Assembly (NCBI RefSeq): GCF_963921235.1
Contig: NC_086097.1
Location: 131,318,001-131,382,000, forward strand
Direction: 5' to 3'
DNA length: 64,000 nucleotides
Source: Mobula hypostoma
Lineage: Eukaryota
Shown here: positions 24,721 through 64,000 of the stretch, piece after piece
Layout of the letters: every line of letters begins with the position of its first letter
Numbering within the stretch: the first letter of the stretch is position 1
The notes under the pieces: generated by a model
What the model was told of the DNA's origin: nothing
Seen by the model: only the letters and a program-made list of their open reading frames with translations
The model's database searches: none
Made by a program: the position numbers and the translations under genes

Positions 24721-24834
24721 CCTCATCGTTCATATCCTTGCCTGACACCAATCTGTCAAATGATGCCCAGCCTTTGAGCAAGTACTTTGGATTTTGTGAG
24801 AAGAATTGCTTCCTCTTATCACCCACAACTCTAG

Positions 24835-25120
24835 TGGCCCAGGTTCAATCCTGATGAGGGTACAGCCTGTATGTAGTTTACATACTCTTCCTGTCACCGG
24901 ATGAAATTCCTTTTTTTACTCCGGTTTCCTCTCACATCCCAAAGGCATGTGGGTTGGTAGGTAAATTGGGCAGTGTAAATTGTCCCTAGCATGTAGGTGA
25001 GTGGTAGAATCTGGGGGATAGTTGAGGGGAATGTGGGGAGATTAAATTGAGATTAGTTTACATAGCTGTTTGATGTTCTGAGCTGCAGAACTTGTCTCCA
25101 TGCTGAACGTCTCTGTACCT
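24835..25120 (+). mobile_element. HE1/V-SINE-like element (further copies at about 27710-28005, 30445-30810, 32445-32740, 33750-33980)
   Basis: B-box ggttcaatcc; core ccggtttcctctcacatcccaaagg..ggttggtaggtaaattggg..tgtaaattgtcc. Confidence 0.7.
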
Positions 25121-29629: not shown

Positions 29630-30167
29630 TTCGCGGTCTTTCATCGAGGAGAGATGAAGAAGGAAGACGCATGTGGAGAGAGCTGGTAGACTACCGGAAG
29701 GAGTAGACTGGGATCTGAGCGTCCGTAGGTCGGCAACGTTCAGAGGAGATCGGTGGAAGAATGACTATTGAGTGAACTCCAACGTGAATTTTTGACTTTT
29801 CCTTGAATTGGACCCTTTTCAAAATTTTCATTACTAACCCTATATTCAGATTAAGATTCATAAAGTTCAATCATTTAATTGCATATGGTGGACTGCCTGA
29901 TATTTTGCATTGTGGGTTTGTAACTGGGCAGTACATTACACAGCATCCACACAAACGTGATTTCTCAGTTTGGCGGGGCCAAAGGCTGTTTCCCCTGGAC
30001 AAACACGAGCTGGGCGAGCCTGAGGGTTACAATTGTGGGGGCTTGTCCGGGATTGAATCCATTGGATGCTGTGCTATTGTAACCCTCAGACTCGCCCAGC
30101 TTGTGTTCATCCAGGGGAAACAGCCTTTAGTCCCGCCAAACTGAGAAATCACGTTTGTGTAGATGCT
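29630..30167 (+). mobile_element. LTR retroelement fragment: LTR 3' part, tRNA-Pro primer-binding site and an inverted LTR-end copy
   Basis: LTR ends ...gagggttaca (30031); tgggggcttgtccgggat (30036-30053) is 17/18 to the tRNA-Pro PBS TGGGGGCTCGTCCGGGAT; 30076-30167 is an inverted copy of 29942-30033. Confidence 0.75.
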
Positions 30168-31874
30168 ACCTGAATTAATGAGAAATAATCTGAAGATGGA
30201 ATATTGAACCATAATTCAGAGACCGAGCAACCCCAAAGGTCAAATGGCTTAGTTCCGCTCCCACATCTTATGCTCTTGGAGAACATGACAAGGTAAAAAC
30301 TTGAAGGACCTCACCCCTGGTGGGGAAGTCTAGAATCAATTTAGGATAAAACTCATTTAAGATGATGATGATGAATGTCATCTTTCTAGGAGTACAACAA
30401 CAGGAATTCTTTATCCTGGCAATCAGTGGGGACTGAATCTCTGAAGTGCAGATGGTAGAGTTGCTCCTCACATTGCCAGTGGCCTTGGCTCAATCTACAC
30501 CTTTGGTGCTCTCTGTGCAGAGTTTGCATTTTCTCCCTGTGACTGCATGGGTTTTATCTGGATGTTCCAGTTTCTTCCTACATTCCAAAGATACGCTAGT
30601 TTCTAGGTTAATTGGCAGTGGCAAATTATCCTTAGTGTGTAGCTGAGTAGTAGAATTTGGGGGGGGGGGCGGGTGTGAGCAGCGTTGCCAGGAATGTAGG
30701 GAGAATGAAGAATCGGATTAAGATGGAATTTTTGTAAATAAGTAATTGATGGTGAGCATGGACTTGATGGGCTGAAGGGTCTGGTTTTGATAATGTATCT
30801 TTCTATCACTTATGTTGTAAGCTTGATTGGATTTTGAGAATTGGAACTGAAGCCAAGATCAGATTACCAATGGCATGCTTGAGAGGCTGCGAGGCCTACT
30901 CTTCATCCAATTTCTTATGTACTTATTTCTTAATGTGTTGTTCAATTGCTGAGCTGGTAATTGACAGTGGTGGAACATATCAAATGTAACTGGGAGCATA
31001 CAGATGACATTAATACTGCCTGGACATCACACTGACGAGCTTAGGGAGGATTTGGTGTTTGTTGAATCCAGTTCCCTGAAAGTTCACCCATAGAATCCCG
31101 AAACATCAATAACAACGGATTCACGTCACCATAAACTAATGACCCTTATTGATGCAGCTATTACTTCAGATTGAGCTTTGCACGGAAGTTTAATGTTGGC
31201 TGTGTGGCATCAATAGAGAATGTGTTCAATTCCTCAGCCCTGACCTGGAATAGCAACGCGTGGCTGGGGGTCATTTGGTTCATCATGTCTGTGTAACCTC
31301 CGTGAAAAAGCGATTCCCTTCCTAAAAAAATGAGCCTCTTCTTCATTTCTGCTCTATTTTGGCACGCTGTCTAATATTTGTTTGCTGAGAACTGACTTTT
31401 AATGAGATCAGTACCTAAAATATTTAATAAACTATCAGCTGGTGCATATCAAGGGCTTGTTACGGAAATATTGACACTGCGAGTCAACACCAGTGGCTAG
31501 CATTAATCAAAAAAGATTAAGGTTTTCAATAATGTTGCTTTGATTCATATTTTAAGTCCCTGTCAAAAACACGCAGTGGTTAGGATGCATTGTTCCAGGA
31601 GAAAACCCTGAGCAAGCACCATTACATTGGACGTAAATGATTAGCTGGGGAAGGATTTATCGAACTAGTAATAATTCTTGTGTGAAGAAGCTAAAAGCAG
31701 AGCATTAAGGGTGTCATTGTTGAATTAAATATTATTTGTTGTGACAATTACAGGGAATTCCAGAGGGAAAAAGTGAACAGAGGATGAATGAAATAAAATG
31801 ATGTTTTTGGGACTTCAGCCATGCAGACTGAAATAAAAAGCGCCGTCACTGTCACATTCACGTTGATATTTGTG

Positions 31875-32390: not shown

Positions 32391-32871
32391 GCTACTTAGC
32401 CAATCTCCAAACGTTTGTCCAGTGATGAAGCCTAATAAGGATGTCATGGCGGCGTAGTAGGTAGTGGCATTATCTTGTAGCTCGAGCATCCCGCTGTCTT
32501 TATGAAGTTTGCTGGTTCTGACTGTGACTGGCAAGTTTCCCCTGGGGCTCTGGTTTCTTCCACACATCAAAGGCATGAAGGTCTGTAGATTAACTTGCTA
32601 CTGGAAATGATCTCTCATGTGGATGACTGGAGGAGTTAATAGGCATATGAGAGAATGAGTTAGGGGAGTATGAGGATGAGTGAGATTGATACAATTGCTC
32701 TGAGAGCTAATATAGACCTGAAGGACCAACTGGTACCTCATACATCATAATAAAATTTAAGAACAGCAAAAACTTCAAGGTGAACTCACTATCTTTCCAT
32801 AATTCCCAATTTAACACATAAAAGGTCATAACCAGGCAGACAGTCAAAAGCTTGGTAAAATAGTTCAGTTA

Positions 32872-33725
32872 AGACCATAAGACTTGGGAGCAGAATTAGA
32901 CTATTCAGCCCATCGAGTCTGCTCTACCATTCCATCATGACTGATCCGAAATCCCACTCAACCCCATACACCTGCCTTCTCACCATATCCTTTGATGCCC
33001 TGGCTGATCAGGAAACGATCAACTTCCAGCTTAAGTATATCCACGGACTTGGCCTCCACAGCAGTCTGTGGCAGAACATTCAACAGATTCACTACTCTCA
33101 GGCTAAAAAAAAATTCCTCTTTACCTCCGTTCTAAAAGGTCACCCCTTAGTTATGAGGCTGTTCCCTCTAGTTCTGGATACCCCCACCATAGGGAACATC
33201 TTCTCCACATCCACCCTATCTAGCCCTTTCAGCATTTGGTAGGTTTCAATGAGATCCCCCTGCATTCTTCTAAATTCTAGTGAGTACAGGCCCAAAGCTG
33301 CCAAATGCTCCTCATATGTTTACCCCACAATTCCTGGAATCATCCTTGTGCACCTCCTCTGGACTCTTTCCAATGACAACTCATCCTTTCTGAGATATGG
33401 GGCCCAAAACTGTTGACAATACTCCAAGTGCAGCCGGACAAGCGTCTTTTGAAGGCTCAGTTTTATCTCCTTGTTTTATATTCTACTCCCCTTGAAATGC
33501 ATAACAACATTGCGTTTGCCTTCTTTACCACTGACTCGACCTGTAAATTAACGTTCTGGGAATCTTGCACGAGGACTCCTAAGTCCCTCTGCACCTCTGA
33601 TGCTTGAACCTTCTCCCCATTTAGATAATAGTCCGCACTATTGTTTCTTTTACCAAAATCCATTATCATACATTTCCCACACTGTATTCCATCTGCCACT
33701 TTTCTTGCCCATTCTTCCAATTTGT
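32872..33725 (-). mobile_element. 5'-truncated CR1 LINE
   Basis: DKLEEWARK..DYYLNGEKVQASEVQRDLGVLVQDS..VKKANAML; aagaccataagac tail. Confidence 0.88.
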
Positions 33726-34759
33726 CGAAGGAGGCTCTTAGCTGGAGAGGTTGGTGGCAGAGTAGTACAGCTAGGAGTAGAGCCACTGCCTCATAGCAGC
33801 AGGGACCTGAATTCAATCCTGATCTCGGGCACTGTCTGTGTGGAGTTTGCACATGCTCCTTGCAGTGGCTTGGATTTCCTCACACATACCAAAGACATGT
33901 TGTTTGGTAGCTGTGAATTGCTGCCAGCCGAGGTGTGAGGAATCTGCGGGGAAGCTGTTGAGAAGCTGGGGAGAATGACAACAGGAGTAATATAGGATAA
34001 ATGTAAAATGCATGAACTCTTTCCGTTTGTACTACAGTGCATCTAGCATTCACTGAAACATGATGAAGGAGCTGTGTGTGATCAAGATAATAAACTGACT
34101 GTAGAAATGACATGTTTGCTTTTGAGTCACTTTATTTGAAAAATAGACATTCAGTGATAGCATGCATTTTGTTTTGGTTTCGGTACTGTATGAATATCTT
34201 TTGTAAGTAGAGATGCTTTATCAAGATTAGTTTTATCTTATCTTCTGAATATTGAAAGGCCCATGTAGAGTGGACATGGTAAGGATACTGTATTTCCAAA
34301 AGGGGGAGAGTCTAAGACCTCAGAATAGAAGGATATTCCTTTAGAACAGAGATGAGGAGGAAGTTCTTTAGCCAGAGGATGGTGAATCTGTGGAGACCAA
34401 GTCATTGGGTATATTTAAAGTGGAGGTTGATAGGTTCTTGATTCGTAAGGGCATCAAAGGTTATGGGAGAGTGCAGGGGAATGAGGTTGAGAGGGGTAAT
34501 AAATCAACTATGATGGAGCAGGCTCAAGGGGCTAAATAGCCTAATTCTACTCCTGTATCTTATTGTCCAAAGAGGTGCATGATGGTCGACATGGATTCAG
34601 TGGGCAGAAGGCCCTGTTTCTTGCTGTATTTTTCCTATATCTCTATGAGACTTGCGAGAGAATTCCAGAGCATTTGAGTAGCTTAAGTCATGACTGCTGA
34701 TTCCAGAATAAAGAAAAGCAGAGAGGCCAAAAATAGAGGTGAACTGAAACCCTAAGTAC

Positions 34760-43739: not shown

Positions 43740-44239
43740 TTATTTAGGTCAATGATGCTGATTTAAAAAAAACCTTCCTGTCTGCACATGGTTTGCATTT
43801 CATGCGCTTACCTAAGAGCATCTTAAGTGCCTCTGTTCTATCTGCCTCCACCACCACCCCTGGCAGTGCGTTCCAACAACCCACTATTCTGTGTGTAAAT
43901 AATTTGCCCTGCACATCTCTTTTGATCTTACCCTCTGTCATCTAAATGCAAAACTTTAGTATTATACATTTCAACCCTGGTGAAAAGGTACTGTCTGTCT
44001 ACTCTACCTAGGCCTCTCATAATCTTATAAATTTATATCTGGCCTCCCCACAGCAACTGCCACTCCAGAGGAAACAACCATAATTTGTCCGGCATTTTGT
44101 TATAGCACCTGCCTCTAATCCAGGCACATCCCGGTAAACCTCTTCTGCACCCTTTCCAAAGCCTTCACATCCTTCCTGTAATGGGGTGACCACCCTTAAA
44201 TTCTAATCATTAAATACTTCCACAAATTCTCTGGTGGTA

Positions 44240-44443
44240 AGAACTGACAGTGCTGGAAATACTCAGCTGGTCAGTCAGTGTCAAAGGAGGGAGAAAAAGA
44301 GCAGATGTTTCAGGTTTCTAAACTTTCATCAGAGCACCACTGAGCTGAAACATTGACTTGGCTTCTCTCGCTATAGTTGTTGCCTGACTGCTGAGTGTTT
44401 CTAGTATTGGCAATCCTTGCTTCTGATTTCCAGTGTCTGCAGG
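44240..44443. mobile_element. Palindromic Penelope-terminus-derived remnant
   Basis: Arms gtgctggaaatactcagc / ctgagtgtttctagtat; central ttcatcag and ctgaaacattgac. Confidence 0.5.
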
Positions 44444-44458
44444 TTATAGAAACATAGA

Positions 44459-45408
44459 CTGTGTGGCTAGGCATAGCTCAAATACCATCTATAAATTTGC
44501 TGACGATACAACCATTGTTGGTAGAATTCAGGTGGTGACGAAAGGGCGTACAGGAGTGAGATATGCCAACTAGTGGAGTGGTGTTGCAGCAACAACCTGG
44601 CACTCAACGTCAGTAAGACAAAAGAGCTGATTGTGGACTTCAGGAAGGGTAAGACAAAGGAACACATGCCAATTCTCATAGAGGGATCAGAAGTGGAGAG
44701 AGTGAGCAGCTTCAAGTTCCTGGGTGTCAAGATATCAGAGGATCTAACCTGGTCCCAACATATCAATGTAGTTAAAAACAAGGCAATTCAGCAGCTATAC
44801 TTTATTAGGAGTTTGAAGAGATTTAGCATGTAAACAAATACACTCAAAAACTTCTATAGTTGTACCGTGGAGAGCATTCTGACAGGTTGCATCACTGTCT
44901 GGTACGGAGAGGCTTCTGTACAGGACCGAAAGAAGCTGCAGAAGGTTGTAAATCTAGTCAGCTCCATCTTGGGTGCTAGTCTACAAAGTACCCAGAACAT
45001 CTTTAGGCAGCGGTGTCTCAGAAAGGCAGCATCCGTTACTAAGGACCTCCAGCACCCACGGCATGCCCTTTTCTCACCGTTACCCTCAGGTAGGAGATAC
45101 AGAAGCCTGAAGGCACACACTCAGCGATTCAGGAACAACTTCTTCCCCTCTGCCATCCGATTCCTAAATGGACATTGAAGCTTTGGACACTACCTCACAT
45201 TTTTTTAATATACAGTATTTCTGTTTTTGCACTTTTTAAAATCTATTCAATATATGTAATTGATTTACTTGTTTATTTATTATTATTTTTATTTTATTTA
45301 TTATTACTATTTTTTCTCTGCCAGATTATGTATTGCATTGAACTGCTGCTGCTAAGTTAACAAATTTCATGTCACATGCCGGTGATAATAAACCTGATTC
45401 TGATTCTG
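44459..45408 (+). mobile_element. 5'-truncated Rex1/Babar-type LINE
   Basis: KFADDT, NNLALNVSKTKELIVDFRK, ESILTGCITVWYG, LPSGRRYRSL..FFPSAIRFLN; (CTGATT)n tail; 7-bp TSD acataga (44452-58 and 45409-15). Confidence 0.92.
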
Positions 45409-45880
45409 ACATAGAAAAACCTGCAGCACAATATAGACCCTTCGGCCCATAATACTGTACCGAACATGTACTTACTTCAGAAATTACCTAGGGTTACCCA
45501 TAGCCCTCTATTTTTCTAAGCTCCATGTACCTATCCAGGAGTCTCTTAAAAGACCCTATCATATCCATCTCCACCACCGCTGCCGGCAACCTATTCCACG
45601 CACTCACCACTTTCTGCGTAAAAATCTTATCCCTGACATCTCCTCTGTACCTACTTTCAAGCACCTTAAAACTGTGCCCTCTCCTGTTAGCTATTTCAGC
45701 CCTGGGAAAAAGCCTCTGACTATCCTCACAATCAATGCCTCTCGTCATCTTATACACCTCTATCAGGTCACCTCTCATCCTCCGCTGCTCCAAGGAGAAA
45801 AGGCTGAGTTCACTCAACCTATTCTCATAAGGCATGCTCCTCAATCCAGGCAACATCCTTGCAAGCCTCCTCTGCACTCA
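45409..45880 (-). mobile_element. CR1 3' fragment whose tail was the target of the Rex-type insertion
   Basis: QRRLARMLPGL..FSLEQRRMRGDLIEVYK; the tail continues at 44446-44458. Confidence 0.88.
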
Positions 45881-48640
45881 GTGTCTTGACCTAGATTTAT
45901 CTCTTAGCCAACCCTGATCCAGTTGCTCGTTGTGGAAGGTTGTTGTGCACATATTTGATACTATATTTCCTACATAAGTGTGTGGACGCATTTCAAAAAC
46001 GTACGGGCAGTCCCTGGGTTACAAGGTTCTTCCATTCCTCAGAGGTGTCCAGAAGCTAATTTCTCTGTAAGTCAGGAACATCGATTTCTACCTGTATCTT
46101 ATTGCTCTACATACTTGGGTGTATTTCTTTCATTTCATTGATTACCCACCCTAACACCATCTATAATCAAACCAATTGAATTTATAATGCATCCCATTAT
46201 CAATTAATTCCACAAAACATTATTGTTATAATCATCATTATTATTATTATTACCATAAGAAGAATGCTTTAAATACATGGGAGAATTTGCATAAAGTTGG
46301 ACTTCTTTAACTGAGGCCATTTGTAATTGTGAACCCCTGCTGTTCATTGCTGACAATGCAATTGGGCATATCCTGACAGTCACTACATACAATGTAAGTT
46401 TTTCTCTTTGTTAATGATGTTATTCTCCCCATGGATGCTGCCTGACCTGCTGAGCCTTACCAGCACTTTTTTGGTCTTAATTATGCCTTAGGCTCAACCA
46501 CCTGCTGATGTCCACCACATGAAAAACTGATGCTTGGATGAGTGTCTCAACAGTAATGGGCATTACCAAACACGGAGCCAAGCTTTCATGAGAGAAGGAG
46601 AGAACAGGGAAGGATGTTGAAAGAAAAATTGCATTAAGTTAAATCATGAAACACAGAAAAGAATAGCACAGAAGAATGTCTTCCGGCCTAAGACATTGTT
46701 GCAAACTAACTAAACCAATGATGCCTAATTAAACTAATCCCTTCTACCTGTACATGATCCACATCCATATTAGGGATGTGATGTTAAGGCTCTATAAGGC
46801 TACACTTGGAGTATTGTGTGCAGTTTTGAGCTTCATATTTTAGAAAAGATATACTGACATTGGAGAGGGTTCAGAGAAGATTCATGAGAATGATTCCAGG
46901 AATGAAAGGGTTACTGTATGAGGAATGTCTGGTAGCTCTTGGGCTGTATTCCCTGGAACTCAGGAGAATGAGGGGGGATCTCACAGAAACATTAAACATA
47001 GAAACATAGAAACATAGAAAATAGGTGCAGGAGTAGGCCATTCAGCCCTTCGAGCCTGCACCGCCATTTATTATGATCATGGCTGATCATCCAACTCAGA
47101 ACCCTGACCCAGCCTTCCCTCCATACCCCCTCATCCCTGTAGCCACAAGGGCCATATCTAACTCCCTCTTAAATATAGCCAATGAACTGGCCTCAACTGT
47201 TTCCTGTGGCAGAGAATTCCACAGATTCACCACTCTCTGTGTGAAGAAGTTTTTCCTAATCTCGGTCCTAAAAGGCTTCCCCTTTATCCTCAAACTGTGA
47301 CCCCTCGTTCTGGACTTCCCCAACATCGGGAACAATCTTCCTGCATCTAACCTGTCCAATCCCTTTAGGATTTTATACGTTACAATCAGATCCCCCCTCA
47401 ATCTTCTAAATTCCAACGAGTACAAGCCCAGTTCATCCAGTCTTTCTTCATATGAAAGTCCTGCCATCCCAGGAATCAATCTGGTGAACCTTCTTTGTAC
47501 TCCCTCTATGGCAAGGATTGTCTTTCCTCAGATTAGGGGACCAAAACTGCACACAATACTCCAGGTGTGGTCTCACCAAGGCCTTGTACAACTGCAGTAG
47601 TAGGTCCCTGCTCCTGTACTCGAATCCTCTTGCTATAAATGCCAGCATACCATTCGCCTTTTTCACCGCCTGCTGTAACTGCATGCCCACTTTCAATGAC
47701 TGGTGTATAATGACACCCAGGTCTCGTTGCACCTCCCCTTTTCCTAATCGGCCACCATTCAGATAATAATCTGTTTTCCTATTTTTGCCACCAAAGTGGA
47801 TAACTTCACATTTATCCACATTAAATTGCATCTGCCATGAATTTGCCCACTCACCCAACCTATCCAAGTCACCCTTCATCCTCTTAGCATCCTCCTCACT
47901 GCTACCACAGCCACCCAGCTTCGTGTCATCCGCAAACTTGGAGATGCTGCATTTAATTCCCTCATCCAAGTCATTAATATATATTGTAAACAACTGGGGT
48001 CCCAGCACTGAGCCTTGCGGTACCCCACTAGTCACCGCCTGCCATTCTGAAAAGGTCCCGTTTATTCCCACTCTTTGCTTCCTGTCTGCTAACCAATTCT
48101 CTATCCACATTTATACCTTACCCCCAATACTGTGTGCTTTAAGTTTGCACACTAATCTCCTGTGTGGGACCTTGTCAAAAGCCTTTTGAAAACCCAAATA
48201 TACCACATCCACTGGTTCTCCCTTATCCACTCTACTAGTTACATCCTCAAAAAATTCTATGAGATTCGTCAGACATGATTTTCCTTTCACAAATCCATGC
48301 TGACTTTGTCCGACGATTTCACCGCTTTCCAAATGTGCTGTTATCACATCTTTGATAACTAACTCCAGCAGTTTCCCCACCATCGACGTTAGGCTAACCG
48401 GTCTATAATTCCCCGGTTTCTCTCTCCCTCCTTTTTTAAAAAGTGGGGTTACATTAGCGACCCTCCAATCCTCAGGAACTAGTCCAGAATCTAACGAGTT
48501 TTGAAAAATTATCACTAATGCATCCACTATTTCTTGGGCTACTTCCTTAAGCACTCTGGGATGCAGACCATCTGGCCCTGGGGATTTATCTGCCTTCAAT
48601 CCCTTCAATTTACCTAACACCACTTCCCTACTAACATGTA

Positions 48641-49870
48641 GTAGAGTGGATAGGGGAGAACCAGTGGATGTGGTATATTTGGATTTTCAAAAGGCTTTTG
48701 ACAAGGTCCCACACAGGAGATTAGTGTGCAAACTTAAAGCACACGGTATTGGGGGTAAGGTATTGGTGTGGGTGGAGAATTGGTTAGCAGACAGGAAGCA
48801 AAGAGTGGGAATAAACGGGACCTTTTCAGAATGGCAGGCGGTGATTAGTGGGGTACCGCAACGCTCAGTGCTGTGACCCCAGTTGTTTACAATACATATT
48901 AATGACTTGGATGAGGGAATTAAATGCAGCATCTCCAAGTTTGCGGATGACACGAAGCTGGGTGGCAGTGTTAGCTGTGAGGAGGATGCTAAGAGGATGC
49001 AGGGTGACTTGGATAGGTTGGGTGAGTGGGCAAATTCATGGCAGATGCAATTTAATGTGGATAAATGTGAAGTTATCCACTTTGGTGGCAAAAATAGGAA
49101 AACAGATTATTACCTGAATGGTGGCCGATTGGGAAAAGGGGAGGTGCAACGAGACCTGGGTGTCATTATACACCAGTCATTGAAAGTGGGCATGCAGGTA
49201 CAGCAGGCGGTGAAAAAGGCGAATGGTATGCTGGCATTTATAGCGAGAGGATTCGAGTACAGGAACAGGGAGGTACTACTGCAGTTGTACAAGGCCTTGG
49301 TGAGACCACACCTGGAGTATTGTGTGCAGTTTTGGTCCCCTAATCTGAGGAAAGACATCCTTGCCATAGAGGGAGTACAAAGAAGGTTCACCAGATTGAT
49401 TCCTGGGATGGCAGGACTTTCATATGAAGAAAGACTGGATGAACTGGGCTTGTACTCGTTGGAATTTAGAAGATTGAGGGGGGATCTGATTGAAACGTAT
49501 AAGATCCTAAAGAGATTGGACAGGCTAGATGCAGGAAGATTGTTCCCGATGTTGGGGAAGTCCAAAACGAGGGGCCACAGTTCGAGGATAGAGGGGAAGC
49601 CTTTTAGGACCGAGATTAGGAAAAACTTCTTCACACAGAGAGTGGTGAATCTGTGGAATTCTCTGCCACAGGAAACAGTTGAGGAAAGTTCATTGGCTAT
49701 ATTTAAGAGGGAGTTAGATATGGCCCTTGTGGCTACAGGGGTCAGGGGGTATGGAGGGAAGGCTGGGGCGGGGTTCTGAGTTGGATGATCAGCCATGATC
49801 ATAATAAATGGCGGTGCAGGCTCGAAGGGCCGAATGGCCTACTCCTGCACCTATTTTCTATGTTTCTATG
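48641..49870 (+). mobile_element. 5'-truncated CR1 of the same family, nested antisense in the minus-strand copy
   Basis: RT YLDFQKAFD..FADD through to the 3' tail; host sequence resumes exactly (ctaacatgta|tttcgctcag); atgta duplicated at 48636-40 and 49868-72. Confidence 0.95.
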
Positions 49871-51666
49871 TATTTCGCTCAGTTCCTCCATCTCACTGGA
49901 CCCTCTGTCCCCTAATATTTCTGGAAAATTATTTATGTCCTCCTTAGTGAAGACAGAACCAAAGTAAATATTCAATTGGTCTGCCATGTCCTTGCTCCCC
50001 ATAATCAATTCACCTGTTTCTGTCTGTAGGGGACCTACATTTGTCTTTACCAGTCTTTTCCTTTTTACATATCTATAAAAGCTTTTACAGTCAGTTTTTA
50101 TGTTCCCTGCAAGTTTTCTCTCATAATCTTTTTCCCCTTCCTAATTAAGCCCTTTGTCCTCCTCTGCTGTACTCTGAATTTCTCCCAGTCCTCAGGTGAG
50201 CCACTTTCTCTGGCTAATTTGTATGCTTCTTCTTTGGATTTGATACTATCCCTAATTTCTCTTGTCAGCCACGGGTGCACTACCTTCCTTGATTTATTCT
50301 TTTGCCAAACTGGGATGAACAATTGTTGTTGTTCATCCATGCAACCTTTAAATGCTTGCCATTGCATATCCACCGTCAATCCTTTAAGTGTCATTTGCCA
50401 GTCTATCTTAGCTAATTCACGTCTCATACCTTCAAAGTTACCCCTCTAAGTTCAGAACCTTTGTTTCTGAATTAACTATGTCACTCTCCATCTTAATGAA
50501 GAATTCCACCATATTATGGTCACTCTTACCCAAGGGGCCTCTCACGACAAGATTGCTAATTAACCCTTCCTCATTGCTCAAAACCCAGTCCAGAATAGCC
50601 TGCTCTCTAGTTGGTTCCTCGACATGTTGGTTCAAAAAACCATCCCGCATACATTCCAAGAAATCCTCTTCCTCAGCACCTTTACCAATTTGGTTCACCC
50701 AGTCTACATGTGATTGAAGTCACCCATTATAACTGCTGTTCCTTTATTGCACACATTTCTAATTTCCTGTTTAATACCATCTCTGACCTCACTACTACTG
50801 TTAGGTGGCCTGTACACAACTCCCACCAGCGTCTTCTGCCCCTTGGTGTTACACAGCTCTACCCATATCGATTCCACATCTTCCCGGCTTATGCCCTTCC
50901 TTTCTATTGCGTTAATCTCTTCTTTAACCAGCAACACCACCCCACCTCCCCTTCCTTCATGTCTATCGCTCCTGAATATTGAATATCCCTGAACGTTGAG
51001 CTCCCATCCCTGGTCACCCTGGAGCCATGTCTCTGTGATCCCAACTATATCATAATCATTAATAACAATCTGCACTTTCAATTCATCCCACCATTCCACC
51101 CAAACCTCCCTAGTATTTATTTTCTCCTTAACCTCTGGTTCTATGAGTTCTGACTTATGCCTGGGCAAGTCCCAGCAAGATAGCCCTCTACAGGCAAATA
51201 GGTGCTTCCAGGGGTGTGAACGTGGATCGTGAATTTTGTCTTATGTGCTGGGACCAGGAGAGAACCTCTGAGATGATAGCGCCCAGGAAGTTGTGGGTTG
51301 CTGGAACAGTGAGGCAGCAGCACTGCTTGTTATGCCACCATTCCACCCAAACCTCACTAGTATTTATTTTCTCCTTAACCATTAATTCATCCACCTTATT
51401 ACGAATGCTCCTTGCATTGACACACAAAGCCTTCAGGCGCTCTTTTACAACTCTCTTAGCCCTTATACAATTATGTTGAAAAGTGGCCCTTTTTAATGCT
51501 TGCCCTGGATTTGTCGGCCTGCCACTTTTACTTTTCACCTTCGTACTTTTTGCTTCTACCCTCACTTTACACCCCTCTGTCTCTCTGCACTCGTTCCCAT
51601 CCCCCTGTTGTGAACTAACCTCCTCTCGCCTAGCCTCTTTAATTTGATTCCCACCCCCAAACCATT

Positions 51667-52602
51667 CTAGTTTAAAGTCACCTCAGTAGCCCTCGCTAAT
51701 CTCCCTGCCAGGATATTGGTCCCCCTAGGATTCAAGTGTAACCCGTCCTTTTTGTACAGGTCACGCCTGCGCCAAAAGAGGTCCCAATGATCCAAAAACT
51801 TGAATACCTGCCCCCTGCTCCAATCCCTCAGCCACGCATTTATCCTCCAGCTCATCGCATTCCTACTCTCACTGTCGCGTGGCATAGGCAGTAATCCCGA
51901 GATTACTACCTTTGCGGTCCTTTTTCTCAACTCCCTTCCTAGCTCCCTATATTCTCCTTTCAGGACCTCATCCCTTTTCCTACCTATGTCATTGGTACCT
52001 ATATGTACCACGACCTCTGGCTCCTCACCCTCCCACTTCAGGATATCTTGGACACGATCAGAAATATCCCGGACCCTGGCACCAGGGAGGCAAACTACCA
52101 TCCGGGTCTCTGGACTGCGTCCACAGAATTGCCTATCTGACCCCCTTAGTATTGAGTCCCCTATCACAACTGCCCTCCTCTTCCTTGCCCTACCCTTCTG
52201 AGCTACAGGGCCAGACTCTGTGCTGGAGGCACGGCCACTGTCGCTTCCCCCAGGTAAGCTGTCCCCCCCAACAGTACTCAAACAGGAGTACCTATTGTTA
52301 AGGGGCACAACCACCGGGGTACTCTCTATTACCTGACTCTTCCCCTTCCCCCTCCTAACCGTGACCCACTTGTCTGCCTCCCGTGGCCCCGGTGTGACCA
52401 CCTGCCTGCAACTCCTCTCTATCAACTCCTCACTCTCCCTGACCAGACGAAGGTCATCGAGCTGCAGCTCCAGTTCCGTAACGCGGTCCCTTAGGAGCTG
52501 CATCTCGATGCACTTGGCGCAGATGTAGACGTCTGGGAGGCTTGGAGACTCCAGGGCCTCCCACATCCGACACCGAGAACAACAAACTGCCCTCACACTC
52601 AT
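51667..52602 (-). CDS. CR1 ORF1p: CxxC..CxxC zinc finger, coiled coil, SGNH/GDSL esterase domain (311 aa from first ATG)
   Basis: Uninterrupted ORF; CSRC..CAKC, LRDRVTELELQLDDL heptads, VIGDS, CLPGA, HIGTND, DGLHLN. Confidence 0.9.
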   Translation of the reverse strand: MSVRAVCCSRCRMWEALESPSLPDVYICAKCIEMQLLRDRVTELELQLDDLRLVRESEELIERSCRQVVTPGPREADKWVTVRRGKGKSQVIESTPVVVPLNNRYSCLSTVGGDSLPGGSDSGRASSTESGPVAQKGRARKRRAVVIGDSILRGSDRQFCGRSPETRMVVCLPGARVRDISDRVQDILKWEGEEPEVVVHIGTNDIGRKRDEVLKGEYRELGRELRKRTAKVVISGLLPMPRDSESRNAMSWRINAWLRDWSRGQVFKFLDHWDLFWRRRDLYKKDGLHLNPRGTNILAGRLARATEVTLN

Positions 52603-54699
52603 ACAGCCCCTCTCCTCAAATAACAACAGAAAATGAATGCCAAACCTTCCTCGCCATTAAGAATGTTAAAAGGCCTGAACAGAATAGATATGGCAAAGTT
52701 ATTTCCCATGGTAGGGGATTCTAGGACAAGAGGGCATAACTTTGGGATTGAAGGACATCCTTTTAGAACTGACATGTACTTTAGTCAGTCAGATGGTAAA
52801 TCTGTGGAATTTGTTGCCACAAGTGGCTGTAGAGGCCAATTCATTGGGTGTATTTAAGGCAGAGACAGATAGGTTCTTGATTAGACAGGGCATCAAAGGG
52901 TATAGGGTGAAAGCAGGGGAGTGGGGATGACTGGAAGAATTGGATTAGTCCATGATTGAATGGCGGAGGCTGTTTGTGTGTAATTAGAGATTTGCTCTTG
53001 CTGATGCTGGCTTGGCAGACCATACGGTATGGCGTGCTTCACTTATCCTGCCAATGGATTTCAAGGATTTTGCAGAGAAACTGTAGGTGGTATTTTTCCA
53101 TTGCCTTGAGATACCTGTTGTAGGAAATCATGTCTCTGAAGCAAGAAGAATGGCAGGATTCACTGCTGCCTTGTCGACCGTGAGTTTGGTACAGTACTGG
53201 AGTTGAAATCCAGGTTTTTAAGTAGTCTTTTTCCTTGGACAACAATTCCAGCACGCTAGACGCGGTGGTGAAATTCATTCCTGATGTCTAACTTCATGAC
53301 GATAAAGGATATGGTTTGTGTTTTCCAAGATTGTAGGAAGATGATGGTATGTAGCAAGAGCATGTTGTTAGATGACATTTCCTTTGTGGATATTAATTGT
53401 TTTACCATTCTTTTGTCTTTGGTGAATGAGCCAATGCGATTTGGACTCTAAGCATCTGCATGACAAACAGGAGAAAATCTGCAGATGCCGAAAATTTAAA
53501 GTAACACACACAAAATGCTGGAGGAACTTGGCTGAACTTGCTTTGCCTATGTATTACAACTCATTGACTGACATTGATGTGATGTCATATCTGGAGTGGA
53601 GTTGGGCAGTTTCCCATTTGTCCTGTAGATTCTGTCCGGGGGAAACTCGTTGGATGTGAATTGCAATATTGCAGCAAAATAAACTGTAAAGTGTTGAAGC
53701 CACACCACAGTCTTTACTTGATGCCAGTCTTCACTGGATTGGGCATATAGTAGGCCTGAGGGTTAGAAACGTGACTGGTGTGTCATCATGTGGTTGAGGA
53801 AGAATGGAGATGAATTTCTAAGTGCAGCCACACTTGGGCCCTGACAGGGGTAGTTGTCTTTCAAAGAAGAAGTAAAATGAGCAAAATGTTTGGAAGGATC
53901 AAGGTAAATAATATCATGACAGGATTAGGGAGTGAAGAACCGCAGTTCACTCGTGCGAGAACACAGAAGAGGGCAATGCATTTAAAAGTTGAAAAAGAAT
54001 TTGACTCCCCAGGAAGAGAAAGGATTTTTATTTTCAAATTTCCGGTAACCTAGGATTATTCTATTTTTAAAAATTTCTTCCTTGGCAAGTCAAGATCACG
54101 GTCTGTGGCATCTTTAAAGAACGAGTTTAATCTGCAGTGCTGAGGTATGCTAAGCCTCTTTGGTTTTCTTTGTTGGAGTCCCTACTAATACCGCTCTGTA
54201 AAGCAAAGATGATCGCGAAGCGCTGGGCAAGAAGAGAGAACAATTAGGTGCGGTGATATTAGGCAGTGTTGTGAAAAGTAGGCTGATGAAATAATTCCTT
54301 GATCAGTCCTGTGGAAGAATTGCTCTGGGAAAACTGTGTCTGTGAGTTGCGGTATCTTCCTTTGTTGTAATGCAAGCTTATACAGTGGACCTTGCTTAGC
54401 ATGGCTATTATTCAGTTACTGTAAAATCTGCTACAAGTCCGCCTTCTGGGAAGATTTGGAAAGGGCTGCGGGCAATTTGTACATAGGTATGACTAACGCA
54501 CCGACATGGTTATCTGATAAAATCAGGCCTGGTAGATGGAGATTTTGTTTTAAATACTTCTGTGTTTGTACTATTTTACAAAACTGTGCTTTCAACAAGG
54601 AAACTTTTCAGCAAAGCATTCCTATTTACATGGAACAAATAGGGTTTCAAACTGCAAATGGATACTCTTTCCATTTAGTTTGAATTGGCAACAACATCC

Positions 54700-55085
54700 C
54701 TTCTACAATCTCAATCAGCACAGGCGCTCCACAACTCTGTGTGTTTATCCCCTGTTCTACTCACTTTACACTTATGACTGTGTGGCTAAGCACAGCCCCA
54801 ACGCCATACTTAAGTTTACTGATGACACCACTGTCGTTGGCTGAATCAAATGATGATGATGAATCAGCATACAGGAGGGAGGTTGAAAATCTGTCTGAGT
54901 GGTGCCACAACAACAACCTCTCACTCAATGTCAGTAAGATCAAGGAGATGAGTATTGACTTCAGGAGGAGGGAGCCAGAGGTCTATGAGCCAGTCCTTGT
55001 TGGGGGATCAGAGGGAGAGAAGGTCAGCAATTCTAACTTCCTGGGCGCTATCATCTCAGAGGTCCTCTCCTGGTCCCAGCACGTA
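54700..55085 (+). mobile_element. Rex1/Babar-type LINE RT fragment
   Basis: LFYSLYTYDCVA..KFTDDTTVVG and WCHNNNLSLNVSK.KEM.IDFRR. Confidence 0.85.
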
Positions 55086-55239
55086 AGACAAAATTCACGA
55101 TCCACGTTCACACACCTGGAAGCACCTATTTGCCTGTAGAGGGCTATCTTGCTGGGACTTGCCCAGGCATAAGTCAGAACTCATAGAACCAGAGGTTAAG
55201 GAGAAAATAAATACTAGGGAGGTTTGGGTGGAATGGTGG

Positions 55240-57991
55240 GATGAATTGAAAGTGCAGATTGTTATTAATGATTATGATATAGTTGGGATCACAGAGACAT
55301 GGCTCCAGGGTGACCAGGGATGGGAGCTCAACGTTCAGGGATATTCAATATTCAGGAGGGATAGACATGAAGGAAGGGGAGGTGGGGTGGCGTTGCTGGT
55401 TAAAGAAGAGATTAACGCAATAGAAAGGAAGGACATAAGCCGGGAAGATGTGGAATCGATATGGGTAGAGCTGTGTAACACCAAGGGGCAGAAGACGCTG
55501 GTGGGAGTTGTGTACAGGCCATCTAACAGTAGTAGTGAGGTCGGAGATGGTATTAAACAGGAAATTAGAAATGTGTGCAATAAAGGAACAGCAGTTATAA
55601 TGGGTGACTTCAATCTACATGTAGACTGGGTGAACCAAATTGGTAAAGGTGCTGAGGAAGAGGATTTCTTGGAATGTATGCGGGATGGTTTTTTGAACCA
55701 ACATGTCGAGGAACCAACTAGAGAGCAGGCTATTCTGGACTGGGTTTTGAGCAATGAGGAAGGGTTAATTAGCAATCTTGTCGTGAGAGGCCCCTTGGGT
55801 AAGAGTGACCATAATATGGTGGAATTCTTCATTAAGATGGAGAGTGACATAGTTAATTCAGAAACAAAGGTTCTGAACTTAAAGAGGAGTAACTTTGAAG
55901 GTATGAGACGTGAATTAGCTAAGATAGACTGGCAAATGACACTTAAAGGATTGACGGTGGATATGCAATGGCAAGCATTTAAAGGTTGCATGGATGAACA
56001 ACAACAATTGTTCATCCCAGTTTGGCAAAAGAATAAATCAAGGAAGGTAGTGCACCCGTGGCTGACAAGAGAAATTAGGGATAGTATCAAATCCAAAGAA
56101 GAAGCATACAAATTAGCCAGAGAAAGTGGCTCACCTGAGGACTGGGAGAAATTCAGAGTTCAGCAGAGGAGGACAAAGGGCTTAATTAGGAAGGGGAAAA
56201 AAGATTATGAGAGAAAACTGGCAGGGAACATAAAAACTGACTGTAAAAGCTTTTATAGATATGTAAAAAGGAAAAGACTGGTAAAGACAAATGTAGGTCC
56301 CCTACAGACAGAAACAGGTGAATTGATTATGGGGAGCAAGGACATGGCAGACCAATTGAATAATTACTTTGGTTCTGTCTTCACTAAGGAGGACATAAAT
56401 AACCTTCCAGAAATAGTAGGGGACAGAGGGTCCAGTGAGATGGAGGAACTGAGCGAAATACATGTTAGTAGGGAAGTGGTGTTAGGTAAGTTGAAGGGAT
56501 TGAAGGCAGATAAATCCCCAGGGCCAGATGGTCTGCATCCTAGAGTGCTTAAAGAAGTAGCCCAAGAAATAGTGGATGCATTAGTGATAATTTTTCAAAA
56601 CTCGTTAGATTCTGGACTAGTTCCTGAGGATTGGAGGGTGGCTAATGTAATCCCACTTTTTAAAAAAGGAGGGAGAGAGAAACCGGGGAATTATAGACCG
56701 GTTAGCCTAACGTCGGTGGTGGGGAAACTGCTGGAGTCAGTTATCAAGGATGTGATAACAGCACATTTGGAAAGCGGTGAAATGATCGGACAAAGTCAGC
56801 ATGGATTTGTGAAAGGAAAATCATGTCTGACGAATCTCATAGAATTTTTTGAGGATGTAACTAGTAGAGTGGATAGGGGAGAACCAGTGGATGTGGTATA
56901 TTTGGGTTTTCAAAAGGCTTTTGACAAGGTCCCACACAGGAGATTAGTGTGCAAACTTAAAGCACACGGTATTGGGGGTAAGGTATTGGTGTGGGTGGAG
57001 AATTGGTTAGCAGACAGGAAGCAAAGAGTGGGAATAAACGGGACCTTTTCAGAATGGCAGGCGGTGACTAGCAAGGCTCAGTGCTGGGACCCCAGTTGTT
57101 TACAATATATATTAATGACTTGGATGAGGGAATTAAATGCAGCATCTCCAAGTTTGCGGATGACACGAAGCTGGGTGGCTGTGGTAGCAGTGAGGAGGAT
57201 GCTAAGAGGATGAAGGGTGACTTGGATAGGTTGGGTGAGTGGGCAAATTCATGGCAGATGCAATTTAATGTGGATAAATGTGAAGTTATCCACTTTGGGG
57301 GCAAAAATAGGAAAACAGATTATTATCTGAATGGTGGCCGATTAGGAAAAGGGGAGGTGCAACGAGACCTGGGTGTCATTATACACCAGTCATTGAAAGT
57401 GGGCATGCAGTTACAGCAGGCGGTGAAAAAGGCGAATGGTATGCTGGCATTTATAGCAAGAGGATTCGAGTACAGGAGCAGGGACCTACTACTGCAGTTG
57501 TACAAGGCCTTGGTGAGACCACACCTGGAGTATTGTGTGCAGTTTTGGTCCCCTAATCTGAGGAAAGACATCCTTGCCATAGAGGGAGTACAAAGAAGGT
57601 TCACCAGATTGATTCCTGGGATGGCGGGACTTTCATATGAAGAAAGACTGGATGAATTGGGCTTGTACTCATGGAATTTAGAAGATTGAGGGGGGATCTG
57701 ATTGAAACGTATAAGATCCTAAAGGGATTGGACAGGCTAGATGCAGGAAGATTGTCCCCGATGTTGGGGAAGTCCAGAACGAGGGGTCACAGTTTGAGGA
57801 TAGAGGGGAAGCCTTTTAGGACCGAGATTAGGAAAAACTTCTTCGCACAGAGAGTTGTGAATCTGTGGAATTCTCTGCCACAGGAAACTGTTGAGGCCAG
57901 TTCATTGGCTATATTTAAGAGGGAGTTAGATATGGCCCTTGTGGCTACGGGGGTCAGGGGGTATGGAGGGAAGGCTGGGGCGGGGTTCTGA
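55240..57991 (+). pseudogene. CR1 ORF2 (APE-RT) pseudogene
   Basis: Long open frame to about 57070 lacks the N-terminal NARS motif, has YLGFQKAFD instead of YLDFQKAFD, a 10-bp deletion at about 57071 and another frameshift at about 57670. Confidence 0.9.
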
Positions 57992-58089
57992 GTTGGATGA
58001 TCAGCCATGAGCATAATAAATGGCGGTGCAGGCTCGAAGGGCCGAATGCCCTACTCCTGCACCTATTTTCTATGTTTCTATGTTTCTAT
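55240..58089 (+). mobile_element. Young 5'-truncated CR1 LINE, sister of 46996-52654
   Basis: APE plus RT plus 3' UTR and tail; begins at ggatgaatt; lies inside a SINE whose head is at about 55226-55239 and whose body follows at 58090. Confidence 0.95.
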
Positions 58090-58330
58090 TCCATCCCTGG
58101 AAGCTGCCTGATGGACCTTGCACATTCCTCCTGTAATGATGTGGGTGTCCTGAAGATGCCCTGGTCTTCAGCCATGTCCTAAAAGTGTATGAGTTGCTAA
58201 GGTTAACTAGCTATCCAAAATACTTCAAGCATGAAGTGGGATGTTGATAGGAGTAAAGGGAAAATACTTTAAAGGAAAAGGAGTGGGGGATTGAGACTGA
58301 TCTGTGAGCTGGCCTAGACACAGTACGCTA
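58090..58330 (+). mobile_element. Body of a degraded HE1/V-SINE-like element split by the CR1
   Basis: tccatccc..ttgcacattcctcctgtaatgatgtgggtgtcc..aggttaactagcta matches the other SINE copies in the window. Confidence 0.6.
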
Positions 58331-58519
58331 GCGGCCTCCTTCTGTTGTTTAAGGAAACAAGGAACAGATCTTAGAAATGAAAAGTTCTGGAACTTTTTTT
58401 TAGCCGATTTGCACACATCATGCTCCCTCAAATGATATTGATTGGCTGGTTCAGTGTGGGGGGTTCTGCCGAACTGTGTCATGGAACTTTTTATGAGGCG
58501 GGAGTGGATATTGGACTGC

Positions 58520-60280
58520 TGGAAAACAGTGCTGGAGTGGTAGGAATGGGGGACAAGGTAATGGTGGTTGAACTAAATAAGTATTTTGCATCAGTCTTCG
58601 CTGTAGAAGACACAAGCAGAATGGTGGCAGTTCCAGGTATCAGATGTCATGAAGTGTGTGAAGTTACCTTTACTAGGGAGAAGGTTCTTGGGAAACTGAA
58701 AGGTCTGAAGGTAGATATGTCACCTGGACCAGATAGTGTACACCCTAGGGTTCTGAAAGAGCTGGCTGAAGAGATTGTGGAGGCATTAGCAATGATCTTT
58801 CAAGAACCGTTAGATTCTGGAATGGTTCCAGAAGACTGGAAAATTTGCAAATGTCTCTCCACTCTTCAAGAAGGAAGAGAGGCAGAAGAAGGGAAACTAT
58901 AGGTCAGTTAGTCTGACCTCAGTGGCTGGGAAGATGTTGGAGATGATTATTAGGAATGAGGTGTCAGGGAACTTGGAGTCACATGTTAAAATGGACCGTA
59001 GTCAGCATGGTTTCCTCAAGGGAAAATCTTGCCTGAAAAATCTGTTGGAATTCTTTGTAGAACTAACAAGCCAGATAGACAAAGGAGAATCGGTTGATGT
59101 TGTGTATTTGGATTTTCAGAAGGCATTCAACAAGGTGCCACAGATAAGGCTGCTTAACAAGCTATGAGCACATGGTATTACAGGAAAGATTCTAGCATGG
59201 ATAAAGCAGTGGCTGACTGAAAGGACACAAAGAGTGGGAATAAAGGGAGACCTTTTCTGATTGGCTGTCGATGACTAGTGGTGGTCCACAGGGGTTTGTG
59301 TTGGGACCTATTCTTTTTACATTTTATGTTAATGATTTGGATGATGGAATTGACAGCTTTGTTACGAAGTTTGTAGATGATACGAAGATAGGTGGAGGGG
59401 CATGTAGTTTTGCGTAAGTAGAGAGGCTACAGAGGGACGGATTAGGAGAAGGGGCAAAGAAGTGGCTGATGGAATACAGTGTCGGGAAGTGTATGGTCTT
59501 GCACTTTGGTAGGGGTTGTCTATTTTCTAAATGGAGAAAAAATACAAAAAAATGAGGCGCAAAGGGACACAGGACTGCTTGTACAGGATTCCATAAAGGT
59601 TAAGTTGCAGGTTGAGTCTGTGGTGAGCAAGGCAAATGCAATGTTCATATTCATTTCAAGAGGACTAGAATATAAAAGCAAGGATGTAATGTTGAGACTT
59701 TATAAAGCACTACTGAGGCCTCACTTGGAGTACTGTGAGCAGTTTTGGGCCCCTTATCTTAGAAAGGACGTCCTGAAACTGGAGAGGGTTCAAAGGAGGT
59801 TCATGAAAATGATTCCAGGTTTGAACGGCTTGTCATATGAAGAGAGTTTGACGGCTCTGGGCCTGTATTCTCTGGAATTCAGAAGAATGAGGAGTGACTT
59901 CATTGGAACCTATTGAATGGTGAAAGGCCTTGATAGAGTGGATGTGGAGGGGATGTTTCCTGTTGTGGGAGAGTCGAAGACCAGAGGACACAGCTTCAGA
60001 ATAGAGGGACATCCTTTTAGAATGGAGATGAGGAGCAATTCCTTTAGCCAGAGATTGGTGAATCTGGGGAAATTTTTGCCACGGGCAGCTGTGGAGGCCA
60101 AGTCTTTATGTATATTTAAGGCAGAGGTTGATAGATTCTTGATTGGTCAGGACATGAAGGGATACAGAGAGAAGGCAGGAGGCTGGGGCTGAGAGGAAAA
60201 TTGGATCAGCCGTGGTGAAATGGCAGAGCAGACTCGGTGGGGCAAATGGCCCAACTCTGTTCCTACTTCTTTTGGTCTAT
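58520..60280 (+). mobile_element. Older CR1 LINE (different subfamily), 5'-truncated, multiple stops
   Basis: SPGPDSVHPRVLKE, SQHGFLKGKSC, YLDFQKAF, LYKALLRPHLEYC; CR1 3' UTR. Confidence 0.92.
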
Positions 60281-61694: not shown

Positions 61695-64000
61695 TTCGAA
61701 TGCAATGACCTTCCAACAGGAGCAGCGAGCGAGAGGGAGAGAGAGGGACTATCACACGCAGACACCTTCCTCCGGCAACAGCGAGCAAGAGGCTGATAGA
61801 CCATGCTGAACACTTTCTCACCTTGACGTTTTCAATGTTCCTTGATGCTTTAATCAGTGAGATCAGTGAGAAATGGAGTTGATCATGGGCTCACCCCCCC
61901 CCCCACATCTAATCTTCCTGGCCTCAAGACCGCTTGCCTCCTGGAACCTTCTCAGAGGCAAAGCACCAAGTCGCTCAATAAGCCCGAAAATGCACCATTA
62001 AACTGTAGATCTCAGGTGCCAACAGTACCAGAACCATGCTTAAAAGAAAAAGGAAGCGTAAAAGAAATGAAGTAAGCAGTTTTGTGACCACTTGGAGGAT
62101 GTCGCCCATGGCAGCATTGTTCGCTAGTGCCATTTTAACCCAACCTAATTTTCAGTTCTATTGACTTTAGTTGGAGACTAAATTGGCAAGGTGCAAAGCA
62201 AGATCCCAGTTCAGTAACTCCCTATACCTGTCTGCCTGGTTATTAATGCTGAACTGATCCTCCCCTAAGGGGGTATTGTTCAAAGAGAACATGATTTGTA
62301 AATAGCATTGATTAGTTTGATGACACAATGAATGCATTGACTTGATGACACAATGAATGTAAAGAAAGTCATATACAGATTATATTGTAATAATTGGTAC
62401 TTGATTTACTATGGTCACATGTACCAAGGTACACTGAAGAGCTATTGTTTGCACATCACCCAGACAGATCATGAGTACATTGGAGTAGTGCAAAAGGAAA
62501 AGAAAACAGAAAGCAGAATATTGTGTTACAGTTATAGCTAAAGTGTATGCATGTTGATAAATTAAGTCTATAGGCCTCGAAGAAGTAGATTGAATTCATC
62601 TTTAATGTATAAGAAGTCTATTCAAGAGACTTATAATAGCACAATAGAATCTGCCTTTGAGACTGGTGGTGCTTGTTCTCAAACTTTTGCATCTTCTGCC
62701 TGATAGGAGGGAGGAGATGAGAAAGTAGGTCCTTGTTTCCCAAATACGTATTTTAAAAACAAAGTTTGTTTTTGAATTAAAGAAAATTCTCCTTATTTCG
62801 CCATCCACCTGCAACATTCTTCATTCCCTAAAGCAACTGATAGTACTGAAGCAATCAAATATCACTTCAGTTCAAATAACCGTAGATACTTCTGTGATAA
62901 CAAGTTTTGGAACTATAGTTCCAAACTCCAGATCGATGTTTCCCAGTCATTTCTGGTTTGATCAGCTACAGATTTAAGGGGAATTCATTTCCTCTAAGTT
63001 TCCTCCTATTAGATAGCAGGTTGCTTCTCTATAGCAAAAAGCTTTGATTTCTATGCTGTCATACCAATCATTTCAGCAAACCACTACTTTGAGGAAGGAC
63101 AAAGGAAAAGCTATAGCAGAAGGTAGAATATACGGAGCAGACTGACAATAAAGTGCAAAGACATGGTGTGATAGATTGTGAGTTCCTGGGATTTACTTAA
63201 TCAACGTAAAAAAGGCCAATAATTTCCTCCAGGAACTTTGTATGCAGAACTAATTTTAAATTGCTTGTGTATGTATTTATGGCAAAAAGTATTCTTTAAT
63301 CTACTGACAAAATCTAAAATTGTTTCGATTTCCCAGCGTGACTAAATGCAACTAAATACACTCCACTATAAGAAAGGTGCCATTAAGCTAGAATGAGTGC
63401 AGAGGGGCTCTATGTGGCTGTTGTCAGAACTCAGGGGACCAAGTTATGGGGAGAGGTTGAGCAGGTTAGGACTTTTTTCAGTGGTTAATGTGAGGTGATC
63501 TCAATCTTCTGTTGAGTATTTTATTTTTTTAGTGCCAAATAGGCACTTCTGGCCTTTCAAGCCACATCACCCAGCAGCTACTGATTTAAGCCCAGCTTAG
63601 TCAAGGGACAATTTACAATGAACAATTAACCTACTAACCGGTACATCTTTGGACAATGGGAAGAAACCAGAGGACCCAGAGAAAGCCCACTTATTTCATG
63701 GGGAGGATGTACTTATTATATAGAGGTGTATAAAATTATAAGGGTCATGATATAGCATCTGAAACAATTAAACCCTCCATGAACATCACCAAAGAACAGT
63801 TGATAGTAAGACAGTTGACTAAAGGAGAAAGTTTTAAGAACAGTCTTAAAAGAGGAGAGAAACAGATAAGGGAACGATTTAGGGGATTGGGAGATGGGGT
63901 CATTCCATAGCAACTCAATTTATGGATATTGGTGATGGAGCAATTATGCTTAGGGAAGCAAAGGAGGCCAGAATTAGAAGAATGCAGAGATTATTTGGCT

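Follow-up and report, generated by a model that had tools for sequence, protein, structure and literature searches.

How can two inverted copies of a CR1 long interspersed element (LINE) lying 3.9 kb apart share both a junction with non-CR1 flanking DNA and the loss of a catalytic aspartate of the reverse transcriptase (RT)? This question is raised by a 64,000-nucleotide stretch of Mobula hypostoma DNA (NC_086097.1, positions 131,318,001 to 131,382,000; the whole stretch is called the window below). The window is repeat-rich vertebrate DNA in which a minus-strand copy near 47 kb, a plus-strand copy near 55 kb, and a third copy nested in the former occupy the same 11 kb. An earlier note explained the pair as one defective element duplicated a few kb away, by retrotransposition in trans or at the DNA level, with a later collapse of the donor. 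Our analysis points instead, with a probability of roughly 0.6, to two independent insertions of slightly different CR1 sub-lineages that later exchanged sequence by ectopic recombination without crossover.

Self-BLAST recovered the inverted pair, matching 46998-48640 to 58089-56459 at 97.0% identity and 49868-51292 to 56463-55035 at 98.7%. The plus copy (55240..58089, +) is 5'-truncated in the endonuclease domain, has no target-site duplication (TSD) and is associated with a 45-bp target-site deletion. It carries 10-bp and 1-bp deletions and a D>G change at 56906. Upstream lies a native flank of 205 bp (55035..55239, +) composed of A (159 bp) and B (46 bp), and downstream lies D (58086..58214, +), the 3' part of an old repeat that we take to be a short interspersed element (SINE); the first 4 letters of D overlap the CR1 tail. 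The order at this site is A, B, CR1 3' part, D. As the earlier note had described, the 205 bp of flank and the junction between B and CR1 occur identically placed in the minus copy, and the junction itself is identical in both. The junction is in frame, leaving 708 stop-free codons from the A-B flank through the endonuclease to the RT (55087-57213), which is probably due to chance.

The extent given for the minus copy held as far as the inverted stretch goes, but the element runs on to 52654 and includes an intact ORF1 (open reading frame 1). The whole is a near-full-length CR1 LINE (46996-52654) with ORF1 intact and the endonuclease-RT ORF2 broken. Its 3' part (46996..48640, -) holds the RT region, the 3' end and the TTTCTATG tail; it is a mosaic of older-type and shared stretches and bears a stop near 48111 and a +1 frameshift at 47519. 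The nested element (48641..49867, +), a 5'-truncated CR1 of the same family as the pair, is flanked by the TSD ATGTA at 48636-48640 and 49868-49872 and retains the catalytic Asp. The endonuclease to linker region of ORF2 follows (49868..51087, -), with 3 small deletions relative to the plus copy. Next come an inner copy of B (51088..51133, -; 46 bp), identical to 55194-55239 and with the joint to CR1 that the plus copy also has; a copy of A (51134..51292, -; 159 bp), with 3 differences from 55035-55193; C (51293..51334, -; 42 bp), which supplies the 5' portion of the old SINE-like repeat and is now gone from the 55-kb site; and B' (46 bp, 1 difference from B) with 3 extra letters (51335..51383, -). 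Beyond B', CR1 resumes with a 9-bp overlap, making the net insert 304 bp, and the 5' part of the element (51384..52654, -) contributes a short leader, the intact ORF1 (ORF 51667-52656) and the start of ORF2. Along its own strand, the minus copy has the order CR1 5'-3 letters-B'(46)-C(42)-A(159)-B(46)-CR1 3'.

The precise tail end and 6-bp TSD reported for the minus copy were both found, CATTAA standing at 46990..46995 on the left and 52655..52660 on the right. Its target was an older CR1 fragment of another family, consisting of X (46785..46995, +; 5' edge approximate) and Y1 (52661..52968, +), the latter ending without a 3' tail. When the minus copy is removed, this fragment is continuous: X and Y1 rejoined gave one continuous alignment to 59703-60228 and to CR1 proteins. 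Both copies of the pair end in a tail repeat that overlaps the target.

The history of the 55-kb site was read from relatives. Four of 24 read runs were aligned to 51285-58400 (one from organism A, two from one sample of organism B, and one from organism C), with runs X10-X20 (share <0.2) left out; flank contigs diverged from the window by 1.6-2.0% in organism B and 3.7% in organism C. Both relatives, B and C, carried an empty allele, in which one contig led from A-B to D across 45 nt, a spacer that fits C (42 nt) plus 3 by length alone. The relatives align from 58086, which leaves the 4-letter overlap with the CR1 tail, and C ends no more than 3 nt from the plus insertion point. The plus insertion removed 45 bp of target. 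Given the empty allele in B and C, the plus copy either postdates the split from B or was a polymorphism at that time. A is native to 55 kb, since an old LINE fragment (54776..55081, +; 69% to 44457-44760), presumably Rex1/Babar-like, runs through its start. A profile of the SINE-like repeat, built from 6 window copies, matched D (E=3e-6), and when C was placed before D the match extended from model position 65 to 16 and rose from 21.5 to 27.2 bits; 3/200 random and 2/200 shuffled spacers scored as high. This profile is slightly circular, five copies having been found by D alone and one only by C+D. These data support C and D as adjacent parts of one old SINE-like repeat and the ancestral order A-B-C-D, as well as the earlier note's view that A, B and C came from the 55-kb site. 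Set against organisms B and C, the window is missing 15 bp after 58235, as well as single bases close to 58111 and 58273. A net inversion of the spacer between the two copies was also considered and rejected, since neither the host CR1 nor the LINE-A-B-D order has changed orientation.

The pair might in principle be an assembly artefact in which two haplotypes were joined in inverted order. No aligned contig spans the whole stretch, and in organism A the contigs at the junctions extend no more than 19-29 letters into CR1, under the 31-letter bridging rule. However, each copy has flanks of its own that restore an ancestral repeat, and the copies differ by the 1.2-kb nested element, by the 5' half and by 52 substitutions. 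The A-B contig also had a depth of 10.7, compared with 5.7-7.0 in single-copy contigs, in a run (X3) that may be the source sample; this hints at two loci rather than many and speaks weakly against the artefact. We consider a mis-join extremely improbable.

We then asked whether the two copies are sisters throughout, as "near-identical" had implied. The plus-minus alignment contained 52 substitutions and 6 indels in 3053 bp, and the substitutions were spread unevenly: 3/206 (A-B), 5/303, 3/819, 21/635, 1/628, and 19/462 in successive segments. Two stretches were 0.2-0.8% apart, whereas 56363-56997, which surrounds the nested insertion site (21/635), and 57626-58087, the 3' end (19/462), differed by 3.3% and 4.1%; the per-segment range was 0.16-4.1%, and the divergent stretches are as far apart as unrelated family members. 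Clustering of substitutions gave P=0.002-0.009 in four statistics with 20000 shuffles. A Fisher test gave P=1e-9 on segments picked post hoc and is not relied on. The pair is real but its similarity is not even, and near-identical tracts alternate with divergent ones, the kind of patchwork that non-allelic gene conversion leaves.

Comparison with the nested element sharpened this pattern. In 56998-57625, plus and minus differed at 1 site (0.16%), and from the nested copy at 16 and 15 sites. In 56863-56997, by contrast, plus and nested differed at 1 site, while the minus copy differed from plus at 7 and from nested at 8; in 57626-58075 the counts were 19 for plus-minus, 16 for plus-nested and 15 for minus-nested. 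A single tree for the pair therefore failed, as older-lineage states stand in the minus copy at places where plus and nested agree (56363-56997 and 57626-58087). Plus and nested share younger states at 57803, 57953, and 57980-82, and the minus letter at 57803 is a family variant whose share of depth rises from 53% in organism A through 61% in organism B to 100% in organism C. Another minus-copy letter, at 51542, makes up some 39% of the family depth in organism A but is practically absent from organisms B and C; it marks a sub-lineage expanded after the split from those two. Among minus-only codons, 3/11 carried the outgroup-majority residue (K 9/15, M 10/14, I 14/14), one of the three having a majority of only 9/15. 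The expected rate was 31/3087 single changes (1.0%), and the binomial P, computed for n=12 and n=9, was about 2e-4, or 5e-3 at a threefold rate. The outgroup consisted of 40 of 43 proteins, partly redundant, from which P0071, P0078, and P0082 (~50% identity) were excluded, as were the 62 proteins of a search for longer proteins. Two incompatible classes of informative sites indicate recombination, and to judge from these sequence states, part of the minus copy appears to have an older-type source, distinct from that of the plus copy.

What the pair does share is nevertheless rare. All five amino-acid contrasts with the nested copy that the earlier note had listed were present (D>G at 56906; 57180/57184/57189; 57213; 57411; and 57485-6), and about ten rare variants are common to the pair. 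The lost Asp lines up with the one in the R2 motif VFVDIAKAFD and is the counterpart of L1 D600 by motif position; D600 of the L1 RT is named as catalytic in PMC10830420 (cited, like the other papers below, from excerpts). Privacy of the D>G change held at the protein level, Asp being found in 15/15 outgroup proteins, and both copies have further disabling lesions besides it. In organism A, the variant at 55474 had 6.3 of 371711 depth units, that at 56000 had 10.4 of 721164, and that at 57411 had 0.1% of depth. In the rows listed, these three variants had ≤0.1% of family depth in organism A and ≤0.5% in organism B, values to be read with the loss of rare variants from contigs in mind. This rarity rules out a widespread subfamily as the source of the shared variants at these three sites; given that loss, a small subfamily may still carry them. 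Neither the subfamily test nor the mis-join test overturns the observed pair.

The earlier note's explanation, a stable chimeric 55-kb donor that was retrotransposed in trans a few kb away and then collapsed through its A-B repeats, is unlikely in the light of this mosaic, even with the addition that older patches were later drawn from third-party copies. The clean tail and TSD of the minus copy, the junction and rare variants common to the pair, and the support for the ancestral A-B-C-D order all speak for it. But it predicts even divergence along the element, and the observed values ran over the full range given above. It would require at least two outside conversions of older type and, in any case, a late conversion between the pair for 56998-57625, and once the pair converts, shared variants are no proof of descent. 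It also needs a local landing in a vertebrate genome, and the literature titles and abstract openings searched held no report of local hopping by a LINE; nor was an intermediate allele seen in the two related species. Duplication of the whole element is thus not borne out, the copies being sisters only in patches. A true local hop, in which a defective chimeric LINE transcript inserted in trans near its own donor and became mosaic afterwards, is unlikely.

The mosaic could also have arisen the other way round, if a single older-type sequence underlay the pair and the nested copy, which lies in direct orientation to the plus copy, or other young copies then converted the latter. The single plus-nested difference in 56863-56997 and the younger states common to both at 57803, 57953, and 57980-82 favour this. 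The 16 plus-nested differences in 57626-58075 do not, and the divergence reaches back to 56363, beyond the nested span, which begins at 56863. Furthermore, the younger state at 57803 is common in the family (47% in organism A), making a local donor unneeded. We regard this course of events as quite improbable.

The pair also shares clustered transversions, 4 in 34 bp (57180-57213) and a double change at 57485-57486, a cluster that suggests a patch of error-prone synthesis. Such patches, together with the lineage-specific junction at 52968|52969, the inverted orientation, the short distance, and junctions with 0-1 bp of in-register microhomology, would suit a DNA-level origin, in which replication template switching (fork stalling and template switching or microhomology-mediated break-induced replication, FoSTeS/MMBIR, or a fold-back) built the inverted copy and B'-C-A-B without RT. 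Yet both copies end in tail repeats with target overlap, and the TSD of the minus copy and the position of the plus copy in the ancestral C|D site would have to be coincidences; the older-type variants would be left unexplained. An origin by template switching is therefore also improbable in our estimate.

Two insertions followed by gene conversion would account for the locus in the following way, a reading favoured also by the presence of the nested element as an independent third copy within these 11 kb. The minus copy would have inserted by ordinary target-primed reverse transcription; its tail, TSD, and continuous host were directly observed, and its separate origin is suggested by the older-type variants. 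The plus copy would have been primed at 58086 inside the old SINE-like repeat, where the relatives document the site and the 45-bp loss. From the order of the pieces, we infer that the plus complementary DNA (cDNA) left its RNA in the endonuclease region and copied the left target end (B, A), then switched to the DNA adjoining the nick (C, B'), ran off its end, gained 3 letters, and resumed CR1 9 bp back. A staggered break could have supplied the templates, with a left end finishing in A-B and a right-end flap of B-C. As the nick marks the end of C, and the plus truncation lies 9 bp from where CR1 begins again, B'-C-A-B was probably made while the plus site was open. With the left end as the template of B-A, direct closure of the site as A-B-(CR1 3')-D would have been possible. 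Alternatively, the full-length chimera would have stood at 55 kb for a while and then collapsed. The data fit both direct closure and a stable donor with later collapse; collapse through the A-B repeats, as proposed earlier, is possible but needless for the data.

Under the two-insertion reading, the chimera, with CR1 homology flanking the 304-bp insert, would then have been written into its neighbour by ectopic gene conversion or, equally, the neighbour's own cDNA would have switched onto the chimeric sequence. The neighbour so converted would keep its own TSD, tail, and older-type patches. After arrival of the nested element, further conversion tracts would have homogenised 56998-57625 and spread D>G and the private changes; the divergence pattern suggests this step, as the stretch at 0.16% needs a later conversion tract. 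In a milder variant, possible though doubtful, the open cDNA intermediate directly rewrote the neighbour and carried target-site DNA into it. Once the pair converts, the shared D>G is uninformative on mobility. It may have arisen after insertion, and this reading calls for no movement of a dead-RT element.

Several observations weigh against two insertions with later exchange. When adjacent changes were merged and indels counted, clustering of the substitutions reached only P=0.05-0.08. The distinction of sub-lineages draws on 40 partly redundant outgroup proteins and a single read-depth row (57803), and the 45-nt spacer is identified with C through its length only. The D>G change lies between the minus-only sites 56876 and 56968, so that it calls for a tract shorter than 92 bp, patchy repair or a parallel mutation. 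A third copy elsewhere could have been the conversion source of the older-type patches, in which case the hop of the earlier note would become tenable again. The relatives were compared over 51285-58400, an interval without the 47-kb site, so that either insertion may have come first. Finally, at the junction 52968|52969, which is 314 bp away from the minus copy's 5' end, the contigs of organisms B and C begin to match only at 52969 and continue leftward with 285 and 32 other letters; this junction, absent in the relatives, is lineage-specific, and the 47-kb and 55-kb sites may formerly have been farther apart.

As for the family itself, ORF2 contains PF03372, PF14529, and PF00078 (apurinic-type endonuclease and RT), and ORF1 of the minus copy encodes a GDSL/SGNH esterase domain (PF13472, E=4e-15). 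The nearest named proteins were from Mobula hypostoma (92%), Leucoraja erinacea (85-88%), and Hypanus sabinus (74-85%), and from the protein matches in birds and rays we take the name CR1. A protein search restricted to longer proteins returned only distant CR1-type proteins, mostly from one bird. The esterase ORF1, the TTTCTATG tail, and TSDs of 6 bp (minus) and 5 bp (nested) are traits of the CR1 clade, and TSD lengths of L2 and CR1 peak at 3-5 bp (PMC4245944). A 28-letter family pattern had 0 matches in metagenome and viral contigs, and Rfam over 44000-60000 gave 3 matches, each far below the gathering score.

Other repeats occur in the window. Older CR1 copies lie at 58670-60251 and 32872-33721, with 66-73% identity to one another or to the young family; relatives of that family in the form of short 3'-end fragments lie at 791-897 (96%) and 21775-21878 (85%). 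Seven further old copies of the SINE-like repeat that includes C and D were found at 24789-25028, 27713-27938, 30442-30663, 32441-32653, 33766-33960, 63579-63789, and 5224-5366. A 226-bp imperfect palindrome (29942-30167), 83% self-complementary, is one that we assume to be MITE-like (miniature inverted-repeat transposable element), and 1629-2356 and 6224-7020 form a direct repeat pair of ~750 bp, 71% identical.

The locus is a single non-functional one and its weight is modest, yet it can be read as a fossil of aberrant LINE integration in the germline of a cartilaginous fish, in which the pieces that record the break geometry (C, B', the 3 letters, and the 9-bp overlap) survive only in the neighbouring copy. 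Private mutations common to nearby LINE copies are no proof of descent or of dead-element mobility, a caution that bears on dating and on the inference of source elements where LINEs abound. Should transfer of flanks between neighbours prove common, it would offer a countable route for local duplication of unique DNA. Each step has precedent. Alus less than 10 kb apart undergo more gene conversion, with subfamily hybrids as a frequent outcome (PMC6598467, PMC8230782); extra sequence derived from the flank has been described with target-site truncation at ZfL2-2 insertions (PMC4245944) and at L1 5' junctions (PMC11702581, text and Fig. S10 legend); and the L1 RT performs template jumping and non-templated addition (PMC10830420). 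The combination is unreported in the literature searched: no report of target-site-templated DNA within a neighbouring LINE copy was found, in a search whose scope mostly excluded subscription papers, as well as the primary studies behind reviews and the supplements of 10.1101/2024.08.27.596794, which may hold cases.

Judged from those excerpts, the locus resembles non-allelic conversion between Alus (PMC6598467, PMC8230782) in that the copies lie <10 kb apart, replacement is partial, and trees conflict along the element; unlike it, the element here is a LINE, the homology is kb-long, and 304 bp of non-repeat heterology would have been transferred. With the ZfL2-2 and L1 insertions (PMC4245944, PMC11702581) it shares local genomic pieces at the cDNA 5' junction and a target deletion, whereas here the templated pieces now sit in a second element 3.9 kb off, and the event took place in the germline rather than in cell culture. 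As in the synchronous L1 insertions that bridge reciprocal inversions (10.1101/2024.08.27.596794), two nearby insertions interacted, on our reading, via their cDNAs; unlike in that system, there is no net inversion, and host repeats keep their orientation on both sides. In esterase ORF1, endonuclease-RT ORF2, 8-bp tail repeat, 5-6 bp TSDs, and 5' truncation, the elements are like other batoid CR1-clade LINEs, from which one copy here stands apart by its 304-bp target-site insert and by a junction common to its neighbour.

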